A DNA stretch of 35,494 nt from a virus (lineage: Duplodnaviria > Heunggongvirae > Uroviricota > Caudoviricetes), in the IMG/VR virus record IMGVR_UViG_2724679140_000015; one strand, 5' to 3'. The notes beneath the pieces are model-generated. The model saw only the letters and a list, made by a program, of their open reading frames with translations. It had not been told where the DNA came from and searched no databases. Position numbers and translations under genes: made by a program. Below are positions 1 through 35,494 of this stretch, in pieces. How positions within the stretch are numbered: position 1 is the stretch's first letter; every line of letters starts with the position of its first letter.

Positions 1-270
1 TTAATGAGCGTCGATAAATACAATCTTCAGGATAAACATCAGCGCAACGATGATTACGCACGGGCTAAGGTCACGCAGACGCCCGGTACCAATCTTCATC
101 ACGCAGTAGGAGATAAAGCCCAGCGCAATACCTTCGGTAATCGAAAAGCTGAACGGCATCATCACGGCGGTAATAAACGCCGGAACAGATTCAGTAAGAT
201 CCTGCCAGTTCACGCGAGCAAGACTTGAGGTCATCAACACGCCAACGTAGATCAACGCGCCAGCTGCAGC
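1..270 (-). pseudogene. 3' fragment of a host membrane transporter gene (resembles the C-terminus of NCS2/AzgA-type purine permeases), apparently truncated by prophage insertion
   Basis: Minus-strand ORF ending with a stop at 1-3; hydrophobic transmembrane-like sequence; the frame only stays open to ~327 by read-through into phage terminal sequence. Family assignment is from memory of permease C-termini. Confidence 0.4.
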
Positions 271-279
271 TGATGCGGC

Positions 280-312
280 GCGAGATAAATAACACAAAAA
301 AGCGAGATAAAT
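280..312. repeat. Two 11-bp direct repeats GCGAGATAAAT (280-290, 302-312), 22 bp start-to-start; candidate transposase binding sites at the prophage terminus
   Basis: Exact repeat read directly from sequence; the spacing matches the ~22-bp periodicity of Mu end-binding sites. Confidence 0.5.
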
Positions 313-466
313 GGAACAAGCTTTACGTTACGGATATTGAAAAAGAATTGCAATTTTACACAATAGCTTCAAACCTTAACCCTGGCCTCATCACTTGTAA
401 ATATCCATGTTATTCTTTTGTATCAACTAACCTGTAACAGAAATGCATATATTCAGACATACACCA

Positions 467-506
467 GCCTGTACTCATGGATTTTACCGCCATCATGAGT
501 ACAGGC
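467..506. repeat. Perfect 13-bp inverted repeat (GCCTGTACTCATG / CATGAGTACAGGC) with a 14-nt loop, between the last tail gene and the phage end
   Basis: Read directly from sequence; no clear U-tract, so terminator function is uncertain. Confidence 0.4.
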
Positions 507-521
507 CGTAATTGTAGATAA

Positions 522-1142
522 CTATTCAGGTTTCTGAGGGAATTCGATGTCCTGGTTTATTTCTGGATTAACGTCACTAAGTCTTATTGTGTAGATCTCC
601 CACGCTTTAAGCAGTTCTTTTTCTTCATCTGATGCAAGTTCCAGACGAACTTTTCGCTCAAGCTGAGCGATGCGTGTTTCCGCTTCTTCTGATAACACTG
701 CTTTGTGTTTTCTGACAGCATCAATCCTGGCTTTTCTGGCTGCTTCTTTGTCCTCCACCCAGCGATGGCCATCCCATCTGTCAAATTCGCTTGTGGGTTT
801 GTGCATTGTTAATATTTCGGGCAACGGACCAATAAAATTAATGGTTACGGACTCTCTGGTTTGTGTATTAAAGGCTTCCATCCCACGATAATCGTCGACA
901 ATTTCCCAGGCTGTTCCATCTTCCGTGCGTCGAACCGCCTGACTGGCTTTTACTGGTAACTGAGGTTCATCCAGATATGCACCTTCTGACAGGGACACAT
1001 CGAACATGACATATTCCATGGTGGACCCCATGTATTCGCGTGTTACAGGATTAGCAAGGTAGCATTTAACCCATCCGGCCACGCTGGCCAGACCGTTATC
1101 ACCAATTTTTCCTTCCTGAATATTGACGTTATATTTTTGCAT
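522..1142 (-). CDS. tail fibre assembly protein (Mu U / P2 G-like chaperone)
   Basis: 206-aa ORF directly downstream of the tail fibre gene; C-terminal region fits the tail fibre assembly chaperone pattern. Confidence 0.55.
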   Translation of the reverse strand: MQKYNVNIQEGKIGDNGLASVAGWVKCYLANPVTREYMGSTMEYVMFDVSLSEGAYLDEPQLPVKASQAVRRTEDGTAWEIVDDYRGMEAFNTQTRESVTINFIGPLPEILTMHKPTSEFDRWDGHRWVEDKEAARKARIDAVRKHKAVLSEEAETRIAQLERKVRLELASDEEKELLKAWEIYTIRLSDVNPEINQDIEFPQKPE

Positions 1143-4204: not shown

Positions 4205-4717
4205 TCAGTGCGAGTGATGATTAGAGTTCTGGCCATCTGACAACATACTGCCTGTCGAGTGGGCATTGCCGTTAATTTCAAGGTTGCCATTTACAGTGGT
4301 GGTGTCAGCGGTCAGAACAATAGTTTTCCCTTTCAGGCTGATATCCACTGCAACCTCGATCACCACATGCTCAATACCGCCTTTGACTGTCAGCGTATGG
4401 GTCGCGCGGTTATAACTGAACTCCGCGCCATCAGCGTATTTCGTGCCCCGGACGTTTTTATCACTGAACGGTGGTTTATCGACGTCTGAGTACACCGCGC
4501 CCAGTATAACACCATCCTCGCCGTTAGCATCGAGCAACACCTCAACTTGTTCCCCCACGTCAGGGAGCCAGTAATCCTTATTATCCTGGGTATTGTGCTG
4601 CAGCACGTTAAGCCAGTTTGTGCGCAGGTTATCGCATTCAGGCAGACGCACGCGGGCCTGAACCCTGTCTGCATCAACGGCACTGACCGTACCGACCTGA
4701 CGGGTGACACCAGTCAT
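4205..4717 (-). CDS. baseplate spike/assembly protein V-like
   Basis: 170-aa ORF; synteny in baseplate cluster. Confidence 0.5.
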   Translation of the reverse strand: MTGVTRQVGTVSAVDADRVQARVRLPECDNLRTNWLNVLQHNTQDNKDYWLPDVGEQVEVLLDANGEDGVILGAVYSDVDKPPFSDKNVRGTKYADGAEFSYNRATHTLTVKGGIEHVVIEVAVDISLKGKTIVLTADTTTVNGNLEINGNAHSTGSMLSDGQNSNHHSH

Positions 4718-15843: not shown

Positions 15844-16057
15844 TTTGCTGTCCCGCGTTATGTTGTCGGAGACAGTTTGTGAGAAATGCAGGCCCGGCGA
15901 TTTTAATCTGCTTTAGAAAACATCAGGAGTGAAGGACAGGGAAAGCAATGCGGTGAACCGGAGGCGGTTATAAAACAGAGGCTGTAAAGCCTTTATAAAG
16001 GTAATACAGCCCCTCATTCGCTGGCAATGATAAATCACCCGCCTGAAGAGAGAAACC

Positions 16058-24711: not shown

Positions 24712-24902
24712 TCCCTAAACCACATTAACAGAAATCACTTCATCCCTGCCGCATCATGAAAGAACGACCAGCCCGGTGCTTCGGACCCACCGGGCTGGCC
24801 ATCGTCCCACAGAAGTGGCTGTGAGCCGACCGAGGTTCAGTCAGTCTCGCGAGACCAGACTAGCCTGCCATATTTTTAATAATTGTAAAATGTTTACAGA
24901 TT

Positions 24903-26308: not shown

Positions 26309-26333
26309 ACCGGAAAGCACAATGCTTTCCGGT
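26309..26333 (-). terminator. hairpin (11-bp stem) followed by T-rich tract on the minus strand; likely terminator downstream of the repressor gene
   Basis: CCGGAAAGCA-CAA-TGCTTTCCGG read directly; minus strand continues TTTTGTTTC. Confidence 0.4.
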
Positions 26334-27417: not shown

Positions 27418-28329
27418 ATGGGACGCACCAAATCACCGATTAACACTGAACTGAACGCCGAGGTACCGCTGTCGGATGATCTCAATGTCAGTCTGAACGC
27501 CATGACACAGCATCGCATGGAGATCATGCAGCAGTTTGGCGATGGTCAGCCCTATGAGCGTGATCGCATAGTTCATGAGGCTCGGTTTTATATGGCACAG
27601 AGCGCTGAGGCCATGCTGGAAGCAGGTAAACGACTTATTATTCTCAAAGAAAATGAACCACACGGGGACTTTGTTGGAATTGTAGAAGAACAACTTGGTC
27701 TGCATGTGCGCGCAGCACAACGAATGATGAAAGCATCTTTGAAATACCTTTCACCAAAACTAGAGCCAAAAGCGACAACGTTGTCGCTTTTAGGTAAGGC
27801 AAAATTATTTGAACTTGTTGCTGAAGATGACGACGACCTTGCTGAACTGGCCGACGGCGGCACAGTCGCAGGACTGACGCTTGACGATGTTGATCGCATG
27901 TCAGTACGTGAATTGCGTCAGGCCCTGCGCGAAGCGCGCGAAACCAACGCAGCACAACAGCGCGTACTCGCCGACAAAAATGAAAAAATAGACTCACTCT
28001 CCACCAGACTGGAGAAGAAATCCCGTATTCAGCCGCCTGAGCCTGATGAGGAGGTTAAGAAGCTGCGGGCGGAAGTAACAGCATTAGCGGTTGAGGCGGA
28101 ATCTGCTATCGCCGTTCGACTGTCCAGCGCTTTTGAGACACTGTGCGCATATTGTGCTGAAAACATGATTGATACCCCCAGAGATTTCATGGCAGGCCTG
28201 GTCTGTCAACTGGAAAGCACAGCGCGTAGCCTGCGCTCCACATTTGACCTGCCGGACGAGCCAACAGGCAATGCAGCGCCTTCATGGCTGACTGAGCCGA
28301 CGCCACAGATTAACGGGCTGGAGGCATAA
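27418..28329 (+). CDS. hypothetical early protein
   Basis: 303-aa ORF with TAAGGAG RBS; sits between ner and the transposase gene. Confidence 0.4.
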   Translation: MGRTKSPINTELNAEVPLSDDLNVSLNAMTQHRMEIMQQFGDGQPYERDRIVHEARFYMAQSAEAMLEAGKRLIILKENEPHGDFVGIVEEQLGLHVRAAQRMMKASLKYLSPKLEPKATTLSLLGKAKLFELVAEDDDDLAELADGGTVAGLTLDDVDRMSVRELRQALREARETNAAQQRVLADKNEKIDSLSTRLEKKSRIQPPEPDEEVKKLRAEVTALAVEAESAIAVRLSSAFETLCAYCAENMIDTPRDFMAGLVCQLESTARSLRSTFDLPDEPTGNAAPSWLTEPTPQINGLEA

Positions 28330-28332
28330 CCA

Positions 28333-30102
28333 ATGAATGCTGCCCTGACTGAACGACTGGTTTATGTCGCCCGCGCGGCACGTGACGCGGGGCATGGTAA
28401 ACGCGGTGCAATATACGACGCTGCCTGTGCTGAACTTGGCATGTCCCGCGCCACTCTGCTGCGCAGGCTGAAGGAGGTCTCTGTGACTGATAAACGCAAA
28501 AAACGCGCCGATGCCGGGCGCAGCGCCCTGACCCGCGACGAAGCCGCGCTGATATCTGCCACACTGCGTGAGGCCACCCGCAAGAACGGTAAGCGTCTTT
28601 ATTCCATCGCGGATGCAGTGGAAACCCTGCGGGCTAACGGCTTTATCTCCGCAGGCAGAACAGATGAAACCACCGGTGAGTTTTTCCCGTTGTCCGAAGA
28701 TGCCATCAGTCGTGCCCTGCGTAACTATGGCCTGCACCCGGAACAACTGGATGCCCCTGCACCGCATACCGAAGTGGCCAGTCTGCACCCCAATCATGTC
28801 TGGCAGATTGACGCCTCACTATGCACGCTTTACTACCTGAGCAATGGACATAAAGGGCTGCAGGTGATGGACAGCGCGAAATTCTACAAGAACAAGCCCG
28901 CTAACCTTGCCCGTATCGCCAGTGACCGCGTGTGGAGTTACGAGATTACCGACCATGCCAGCGGCTGGATTTACGTTGAGTATGTGACGGGTGCGGAATC
29001 CGGTGAGAACCTGTGTTCTGTGCTTATCAACGCCATGCAGGAGCGCGGTGGCGCAGACGTGCTGCACGGCGTGCCGAAAATACTCTATCTCGACCCCGGT
29101 TCGGCGAACACCGCGGGTATGACGAAAAACATGTGCCGCTCACTGGGCATCGACCTGATAGCGCACAGGCCGCATAACGCCCGCGCCACCGGACAGGTGG
29201 AAAAGGCGCGTGACATTATCGAACGCAAGCTGGAGCCGGGTCTGAAGTTCCGGCCGGTTCACAGTCTGGAAGAACTCAACGCGCTGGCCGCGAAATGGCG
29301 CAGCCACTTTAACGCCACGGCTGTTCACAGCCGCCACGGTAAAACCCGCACGGATATCTGGCTGAAGATTACTGCTGAGCAGCTGAAAAAAGCGCCTTCC
29401 GTTGAGGTATGTCGTGAACTGGCTGTGGCGGCACCAGAACTCCGCAAAGTCACGCCAAAACTTCGTGTCTCGTTCCGGGGCACTGAATTTGACGTATCAA
29501 CGGTACCGGGCGTACTGGTCGGTGAAAAACTGATGATTACCCGTAACCCGTGGCGCAGCGATGTGGCACAGGTGGTTCTGACCGGTGAGGACGGCCACGA
29601 GACGTTCTTCCTGGTCGAAGAGGTCAGAAAGAACGAGTTTGGCTTTGCTGAAGGCGCGGCGGTATTTGGCGAAAGTTACAAAGCCCTGCCGGAAACCCCG
29701 GCGCAGATGGCGGCAAAAGAAACCGAAGCGCTGGTCACCGGTACAGACAACGCCGCAGATGCAGCTGCCGCACGCAAGGCGAAGGCACTGCCGTTCGGCG
29801 GACGACTTGACCCGTATAAACATATTGATGACGCCACACTTCCGGCCTATATGCCGAAGCGTGGTCAGGCCTCTGACGTACGCGGGCCGCGCACTGAACA
29901 ACGTCCCATGACTCATGTGGAGGCCGCGAAAGCCCTGCGCGATAAGTTCAGCGCCAACGGCCTTACCTGGACGCCGGAACATTACCGCCAGTTAACGGCA
30001 CAGTACCCGGACGGCGTACCGGAAGCCGCACTGGATGAAGTCATGGCCACGCTGACCACGCCGGTCCGCAGCAGTGTTATCAGCATTGTTAACGGCAACT
30101 GA
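28333..30102 (+). CDS. DDE transposase A (retroviral integrase-fold)
   Basis: 589-aa ORF with N-terminal HTH-like region and catalytic-core-like WQIDAS...ITDHASG motifs; followed by the ATPase gene. Confidence 0.75.
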   Translation: MNAALTERLVYVARAARDAGHGKRGAIYDAACAELGMSRATLLRRLKEVSVTDKRKKRADAGRSALTRDEAALISATLREATRKNGKRLYSIADAVETLRANGFISAGRTDETTGEFFPLSEDAISRALRNYGLHPEQLDAPAPHTEVASLHPNHVWQIDASLCTLYYLSNGHKGLQVMDSAKFYKNKPANLARIASDRVWSYEITDHASGWIYVEYVTGAESGENLCSVLINAMQERGGADVLHGVPKILYLDPGSANTAGMTKNMCRSLGIDLIAHRPHNARATGQVEKARDIIERKLEPGLKFRPVHSLEELNALAAKWRSHFNATAVHSRHGKTRTDIWLKITAEQLKKAPSVEVCRELAVAAPELRKVTPKLRVSFRGTEFDVSTVPGVLVGEKLMITRNPWRSDVAQVVLTGEDGHETFFLVEEVRKNEFGFAEGAAVFGESYKALPETPAQMAAKETEALVTGTDNAADAAAARKAKALPFGGRLDPYKHIDDATLPAYMPKRGQASDVRGPRTEQRPMTHVEAAKALRDKFSANGLTWTPEHYRQLTAQYPDGVPEAALDEVMATLTTPVRSSVISIVNGN

Positions 30103-34682: not shown

Positions 34683-35124
34683 ACAACGTCTTATCCAGCT
34701 CATTCATATTGCCCGTAATGAACTGGGTATGGATGAAGACACCTACCGCCAGATGTTAGAGGGGCTGACCGGTAAAGCCTCAACCAAAGGAATGGATACC
34801 ACACAACTAAACTGCGTGCTGGAATCCATGAAAAGGAAAGGCTTTCGCGTTAAGCCTGCCGGAAAAGCCAGCTCCGGTTTACAGCTGGATAACCATCCGC
34901 AGTCCAGGAAAATCCGTGCGCTATGGCTTGAAATGGCTGCTGCCGGCATTGTTCGTGACCGTTCAGAAAATGCATTAGCGCGGTGGATCAAGCGGGAAAC
35001 GGGCATCAGCGCCCTGCGCTGGCTCAGTACTGAACAGGCAAGCAGTGTTATTGAGAAACTGAAGAAGTGGCAGCGCAGAGCTGCGGGAGTAAAACATGAG
35101 CGACCTGAATCAGTTTCGAAGTAA
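34672..35124 (+). CDS. GemA-like protein (Mu gp16-like)
   Basis: Located immediately upstream of the Mor-like gene as in Mu; AAGGAG RBS 5 nt upstream of ATG 34672. Confidence 0.5.
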   Translation: MMTKQRLIQLIHIARNELGMDEDTYRQMLEGLTGKASTKGMDTTQLNCVLESMKRKGFRVKPAGKASSGLQLDNHPQSRKIRALWLEMAAAGIVRDRSENALARWIKRETGISALRWLSTEQASSVIEKLKKWQRRAAGVKHERPESVSK

Positions 35125-35494
35125 AGGGCCGGAACTCCTGGTGGAACTGGCACAGCATACCTCTGAGACCGTTCGCGAGATTATTGATATTGAGCCCGCA
35201 ATTGCCGACCAGATTGGTCAGGCCGTCGCGAACCGAATGATGCAGGTCTGGGGCGGGCAAAACGTTTATTTCCCGATGGGCATGGTATGGAAGGTCAGTC
35301 AGCGCGACCGGGAAATCTTCAGGGAGTTTAACGGACGCAACCACCACGAACTGGCCCGCAAGTTTGGTGTTTCGCTTCAGTGGGTCTACAGCGTGGTTAA
35401 GCGGGTCAGAAAAGAAGAACTGGATCGGATGCAGGGCAGGTTGTTTGATGAAGATCTGCCAGAGGAGACGAAAGACGTTAACAAATCCAGATAA
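35096..35494 (+). CDS. mor: Mor-like middle-operon transcription activator (Mor/C family)
   Basis: 132-aa ORF with C-terminal HTH-like region (GRNHHELARKFGVSLQWVYSVVKRVR); position after gemA-like gene. Confidence 0.55.
   Translation: MSDLNQFRSKGPELLVELAQHTSETVREIIDIEPAIADQIGQAVANRMMQVWGGQNVYFPMGMVWKVSQRDREIFREFNGRNHHELARKFGVSLQWVYSVVKRVRKEELDRMQGRLFDEDLPEETKDVNKSR

Follow-up and report, generated by a model that had tools for sequence, protein, structure and literature searches.

The window, that is, the whole stretch of 35,494 nucleotides that was analysed, carries a BcepMu-type (Mu-like) transposable prophage inserted in the adeP gene of E. coli. The late genes are on the minus strand, run from about 24.5 kb to position 522 and encode a P2-type tail, with genes for baseplate J and I, the fibre and its assembly protein. 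On the plus strand, an early region that occupies 27.1 kb to the window end encodes, among others, an rve-domain transposase (28333-30102), an AAA ATPase, an HTH repressor and Mor. The window stops ~1.1 kb short of the complete phage, whose total length is about 36.3 kb, and the missing portion holds a 210-aa ORF, a 53-aa ORF and the left end. Past the last late gene, and before the right terminus of the phage, there is a perfect inverted repeat, and the features that surround it are listed in Table 1.

Table 1. [quoted passage not shown]
Feature	Position	Strand	Remarks
Host adeP (adenine permease), 3′ part	1-270	-	100% identical to E. coli; the phage interrupts it at 270/271
Conserved terminal block, right end	271-362		TGAT, two GAGATAAAT boxes (280-297 and 302-319), then AAAAAGAATTGCAA
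Orphan spacer holding the hairpin	363-521		159 bp, 38% GC, AT-rich; limited to one phage sub-lineage
Weak second hairpin, immediately 3′ of the first	443-464	-	GUGUAUGU-CUGAAU-AUAUGCAU, about -5 kcal/mol, then UUCUGUU
Extended stem, minus-strand RNA only	465-508	-	17 pairs, 9-nt loop, -26.3 kcal/mol
Hairpin	467-506	-	Perfect 13-bp arms, 14-nt spacer; read as an RNA stem-loop of the late transcript
Tail-fibre assembly gene, last late gene	522-1142	-	206 aa; Caudo_TAP_N and Caudo_TAP domains

The arms of the repeat, GCCTGTACTCATG (467-479) and CATGAGTACAGGC (494-506), are exact complements, with seven G-C pairs among the 13. The first-pass annotation had described such a repeat between the final tail gene and the phage end, and both its structure and its placement are confirmed here. 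The 16 bp that had been given from the assembly-gene stop is essentially right, as 15 nt are measured to the stop codon (522-524); the ~160 bp given for its distance from the terminus needs correcting, since the terminus is 271 and the outer edge of the hairpin lies 196 bp from it. This is the sole perfect close inverted repeat of at least 13 bp in the 35.5-kb window. When the whole window was shuffled with dinucleotide composition preserved (n = 300), any perfect 13-bp repeat with a 3-40 nt loop turned up in 2.7% of shuffles, with a mean of 0.033 per shuffle. In addition, a 50-nt segment containing the hairpin folds with z-scores of -6.1 as minus-strand RNA, -5.9 as plus-strand RNA and -6.8 as DNA, and none of 200 shuffles of this segment matched the native fold. 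Thus, given its rarity in shuffles and its folding z-scores, the repeat is real and unlikely to be a product of chance.

The phage sequence begins at 271 with TGATGCGGCGCGAGATAAAT and contains two 18-nt direct repeats (beginning GCGAGATAAAT) at 280 and 302, that is, with 22 bp spacing. Copies from the same sub-lineage are found at no fewer than six host sites, and all of them match the window through CGCCGCATCA and diverge right after it. Because independent copies diverge at that very base, the right terminus can be placed exactly at 271. The insertion sites include adeP, the tail genes of another prophage, positions beside DUF805 genes and beside ppdB-recC, and two others; the hairpin accompanies the phage at each of at least six independent ones. 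The left end, about 1.1 kb past the window, reads GTTATTTATCTCACGG...CATTTATCTCATGTCTGATCA, and the host sequence beyond it differs from locus to locus; it is visible in the loci L050-L055 (about 4400-4505). TGAT and a pair of GAGATAAAT boxes with 22-bp spacing are therefore present at both ends, in inverted orientation relative to each other. The right-end block also contains, at 341-357, a run of five A followed by a 12-nt palindrome, GAATTGCAATTC, about 70-85 bp from the terminus, and GAAAAGAATT, a similar motif that keeps this genomic orientation, lies at ~95 bp from the left terminus (L051, about 4405-4420). These two motifs could be a host-factor or accessory site.

This organization is the one described for BcepMu and KS10, in which a P2-like tail module occupies the right end, the TnpA-binding sites are direct repeats and a G segment is missing (PMC2628397). 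The phage in the window shares with them the P2-like tail module by the right end, the two GAGATAAAT boxes spaced by 22 bp and mirrored at the left end, and the use of many host sites. Members of this phage family occur in 643 of 5,426 complete E. coli genomes, and the exact Mor sequence (window positions 35096-35494) occurs in 12,387 blocks of an assembly collection, with host flanks that differ in each sampled locus. In view of these differing flanks and of the number of Mor blocks, the family is extremely widespread and actively transposing in E. coli.

The right ends of the relatives differ greatly from one another inboard of the terminus. When the right ends of five family members are aligned, conservation is limited to the outermost ~90 bp, from 271 to ~362; this terminal block is common to all family members, and its boxes are mirrored at the left end. 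In most relatives (for instance, KP12, O68:H12 97.3 and M114), a serine invertase gene and an invertible alternative fibre/assembly cassette lie inboard of the block, and in C51 an invertase remnant is found there. In another relative (L024), the assembly gene comes last, with only ~70 bp from its stop to the conserved block and no significant structure in between (z = -0.4). The interval between assembly gene and terminus is in fact hypervariable (L001, 1-1200; L002, 184-4200; L003, 356-4700; L015, 6762-7000; L024, 3122-3290), and it can be regarded as a hot spot of cassette exchange that contains, depending on the member, a multi-cassette invertible fibre segment with its serine invertase, a remnant (pseudogene) of the invertase, a short spacer of ~70 bp or an orphan spacer.

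The hairpin belongs to the variable part of this interval. It lies outside the ~90-bp conserved block and is missing from the left end as well as from relatives whose early region, transposase and repressor genes included, is 97-98% identical. A comparison with related prophage ends had been proposed in the first-pass annotation, which named a lack of conservation in relatives, together with transcripts that read through, as counting against its reading; the comparison reveals no conservation outside one near-clonal sub-lineage. As there are family members without the hairpin, among them the one in which the assembly gene is also last, the hairpin is dispensable for this type of phage. For the same reasons, a role as a transposase, enhancer or end-architecture site was considered and rejected. 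The hairpin is unlike the end repeats of transposable phages: it matches no consensus of Mu-type end sites, is not an end repeat, lacks an equivalent at the left end and is not a conserved trait of the family. It is outside the transposition and recombination machinery of the phage. Nor do the better-known right ends offer a parallel. In Mu, the mom gene is followed by R1-R3, and between the last gene and the end there is only a 12-nt imperfect repeat located inside the end repeats. In BcepMu, a reverse-strand acyltransferase gene lies between the last gene and the right end, with nothing comparable to the hairpin. A literature search on Mu late transcription and right ends returned nothing specific on terminators in that position.

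The assembly gene gives some indication of how the spacer may have been acquired. Over 557-1150, the gene is 97.5% identical to its counterpart in a P2-like prophage that occurs in some E. coli genomes, and homology drops at 557. The last 36 nt of the gene differ, and its final nine codons (DIEFPQKPE) represent a Proteus-type C-terminus; Proteus assembly proteins, at 65-68% identity, are also the nearest homologues outside the gene's own cluster. In the Proteus prophages that carry these genes, the sheath gene comes directly after an intergenic region of P2 type, and no similar hairpin is found. The similarity to the P2-like prophage extends over the C-terminal part of the fibre gene as well (557-2134, 95-97.5% identical; L004, L017, L037-L043). 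Several contigs (among L012, L036, L044 and L045) join Mu-like upstream to P2-like downstream genes, or the reverse; they could be assembly chimeras or real recombinants.

The spacer itself, at 38% GC against 55% in the phage backbone, was searched for widely. Distant blastn searches with 363-521 and 271-560 found no homologue of the spacer in 5,426 complete E. coli genomes, even at E <= 10, and similar searches found none in 50,697 phage records or in a plasmid collection. Exact-pattern scans of viral contigs with the hairpin and two flanking 20-22-mers did not find it either. In 185,579 species-representative genomes and in JGI metagenome contigs, the hairpin pattern returned only unrelated palindromes, one of them a high-GC actinobacterial palindrome at a contig end. 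Four intrinsic terminators from Ruminococcaceae/Oscillospiraceae MAGs (L025-L028), of the form AAACTGTACTCATGC(A/G)G...C(T/C)GCATGAGTACAGTTTTTT, share an 11-nt arm core with the hairpin stem; this likeness is taken as coincidence because their flanks and loops are unrelated. A host palindrome of the REP/BIME type, which would require many dispersed copies, was rejected, as there is no match in the 5,426 E. coli genomes. No donor of the cassette was found in the E. coli, phage, plasmid, viral-contig, species-genome or metagenome searches. Since P2-like homology ends at 557 and the gene has a Proteus-type ending, the most plausible source of the spacer is either the downstream flank of a fibre/assembly cassette acquired from elsewhere or junction DNA formed when such a cassette replaced the invertase module. 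The spacer sits where relatives have their invertible cassette and invertase and, consequently, the hairpin most likely arrived with the imported cassette as its downstream flank.

Several features of the hairpin point to the late transcript. It is co-oriented with the late genes, lies just past the assembly-gene stop, and no later gene precedes the terminus, as expected at the end of a transcription unit. On the minus strand, the stem is extended by a C-G and a G.U pair at its base and by two A-U pairs within the loop, whereas the plus-strand RNA forms 13 pairs with -22.0 kcal/mol; the minus-strand fold is thus the stronger of the two. Among independent copies, there is a lone substitution in the stem (L034, window position 497, C>U on the late strand). 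This change keeps a G.U pair on the late strand but would produce an A.C mismatch in the plus-strand RNA, and a DNA cruciform would likewise contain a mismatch. It constitutes weak evidence because it is a single event with a prior of ~50% for any transition. All 17 copies of the full spacer that were compared are at least 99.4% identical, and this G.U-preserving change is the only stem change among them. No diverged homologue that could show compensatory changes was found in the genome, phage, plasmid, viral-contig and metagenome searches, and an Rfam search at permissive E-values gave no relevant family.

The sequence 3′ of the stem is less typical of a terminator. It reads UGGUGUAUGU, which falls short of a U-rich tract (for example, at least 5 U in 8), and a terminator consensus scan did not call the hairpin. 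The decay-weighted U score of the tail is -2.75, at about the 10th percentile of random 15-mers, as compared with -4.42 (26309-26333) and -3.22 (15977-16014) for canonical terminators of the same phage. On the plus strand, the score after the hairpin is -1.98 and there is no U-tail. The loop, of 9-14 nt, is also longer than the 3-8 nt that are usual in intrinsic terminators. In Rho-dependent termination, RNA that is rich in G rather than C is unfavourable for the loading of Rho at its utilisation sites. Downstream of the hairpin, the late-sense RNA is G-rich, not C-rich.

Compared with known elements, the hairpin is closest to intrinsic terminators and to the stem-loops that stabilise 3′ ends, with which it shares a stable stem-loop, co-oriented with the gene and a few nucleotides past its stop. 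It differs from intrinsic terminators in lacking a U-tract, in its longer loop and in its unusually long perfect stem (13-17 bp). A parallel is provided by the P2-like prophage whose assembly gene is 95-97% identical (L017/L004), which has at the same relative position a classic terminator, CTGTCGGAAT...ATTCCGACAG followed by TTTCTTTTT. The first-pass annotation had suggested, among other options, a late-operon terminator without a strong U-tract. This is the best supported of its options: the placement, the stability on the late strand, the G.U pair in L034 and the P2-like parallel agree with it, while the U-tract test speaks against it.

Co-orientation with the late genes, the stronger late-strand fold, the L034 pair and the P2-like parallel favour an RNA element, and the hairpin is accordingly read, with a probability of roughly 50%, as a weak terminator, a pause site or a protective 3′-end stem-loop of the late operon. 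Under this reading, a polymerase leaving the assembly gene would transcribe the two arms 15 nt past the stop, and the RNA would fold into the 17-pair hairpin. As the stem lacks a U-tract behind it, it would probably work as an intrinsic terminator of low efficiency or as a site of pausing, and the stem-loop would probably also block 3′-to-5′ exonucleases, thus setting and stabilising the end of the late mRNA. Termination or stabilisation activity is deduced here from structure and position. Through pausing or termination and the barrier at the mRNA end, the hairpin would limit read-through into the transposase-binding right end, 105 bp downstream. Taken further, the hairpin might be a selected insulator that halts or slows late-operon polymerase ahead of the transposase-binding boxes in sub-lineages that have lost the invertible cassette and invertase, so that their assembly gene adjoins the right end, which seems decidedly improbable. 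If true, it would represent a U-tract-independent roadblock specific to transposable phages that protects the assembly of the right-end transpososome in replicative transposition, and a modest addition to the biology of Mu-type phages.

The main competitor to a transcript-end element is that the hairpin is a functionless passenger in DNA of foreign or junction origin that remained after a swap of the fibre cassette and the loss of the invertase module. It could be the decayed terminator of a donor, now without its U-tract, or an inverted duplication created by template switching during repair, and it would persist only because the sub-lineage is young. This is quite possible, if somewhat less probable. 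It would account for the confinement to a near-clonal group of copies (4 substitutions in 251 bp), the orphan nature and atypical GC content of the spacer, and the missing U-tract, and it fits a hypervariable interval in which L024, C51 and the invertase-bearing members manage without a hairpin. Nevertheless, a perfect 13-bp repeat precisely at the end of the operon is improbable by chance, its placement and strand asymmetry suit a transcript-end element, and even a decayed donor terminator would still fold and could still act.

The other explanations fare worse. The repeat could work as double-stranded DNA, either as a site for a dimeric phage or host protein or as a cruciform, with a role in the regulation or architecture of the right end. 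The perfect dyad symmetry of the arms, the stability of the DNA hairpin (-13.5 kcal/mol, z = -6.8) and the location in non-coding DNA about 200 bp from the transposon end are consistent with such a role, but it is improbable: the phage contains no second copy, its three near-matches (up to two mismatches) are all in coding regions and compare with 0.9 expected, and neither the left end nor relatives whose early region is 97-98% identical contain the repeat. Moreover, the centres of the half-sites are 27 bp apart, that is, ~2.5 helical turns, a spacing ill suited to a simple dimer, and the L034 substitution breaks the symmetry of the DNA. The protein-binding site that the first-pass annotation had entertained consequently finds no support. 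It is very improbable that the region encodes a small product. A 28-codon ORF (496-410, minus strand) starts inside the hairpin, a 22-codon ORF (443-511) lies on the plus strand, and a sigma-70-like match (9/12) at 337-364 on the plus strand could drive an sRNA ending at the hairpin. However, neither ORF has a ribosome-binding site and one start codon is buried in the stem; promoter-like matches are as frequent as in shuffles (3 versus 3.0 expected), the plus-strand U-tail that an sRNA would need is missing (-1.98), and there are neither Rfam matches nor homologues.

Least probable of all is a remnant of a recombination site, which had also been raised in the first-pass annotation, whether an invertase crossover site of a lost invertible fibre segment or the target of another recombinase. 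It is conceivable in that relatives have an invertible cassette and a serine invertase in exactly this interval, and the hairpin resembles the Gin/Cin/Hin sites (gix, cix and hix) in being inverted-repeat DNA associated with fibre and assembly genes at Mu-like right ends. These crossover sites are about 26 bp long, with the core AAACC-NN-GGTTT, which the hairpin arms do not match. In the relatives, the crossovers are Gin/Cin-type TTCCCCTAAACCAAGGTTTTTGACAAA in KP12 and 220-240-bp repeats of the fibre gene in M114, neither of which is like GCCTGTACTCATG, and they are located within the fibre gene and beside the invertase gene, not past the assembly gene. By contrast with the kilobase-scale segments between true crossover sites, the arms here are 14 nt apart. 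There is no invertase ORF, a tblastn search of 271-560 for decayed invertase, alternative fibre or assembly-gene sequence returned only noise, and the homology with the P2-like cassette breaks at 557 and not at the hairpin. An invertase crossover remnant was therefore rejected.

The hairpin is of a common kind, and its setting is newly characterised. Most likely an unremarkable structure at a transcript end in one sub-lineage, it is of little importance by itself; what is useful is the context, with the terminus fixed at 271 and the transposase-binding boxes defined at both ends.

Other hairpins and palindromes are present in the window. Canonical U-tract terminators are found on the minus strand after the HTH repressor gene (26309-26333) and in the head region (15977-16014). 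Near the late/early boundary, a 16-pair hairpin of -37 kcal/mol (24763-24803) lies between two minus-strand ORFs. Finally, a perfect 24-nt palindrome, AAAAGCGACAACGTTGTCGCTTTT (12+12, no spacer), is located at 27768-27791 inside a DUF3102-domain ORF (27418-28329) that lies just upstream of the transposase gene.
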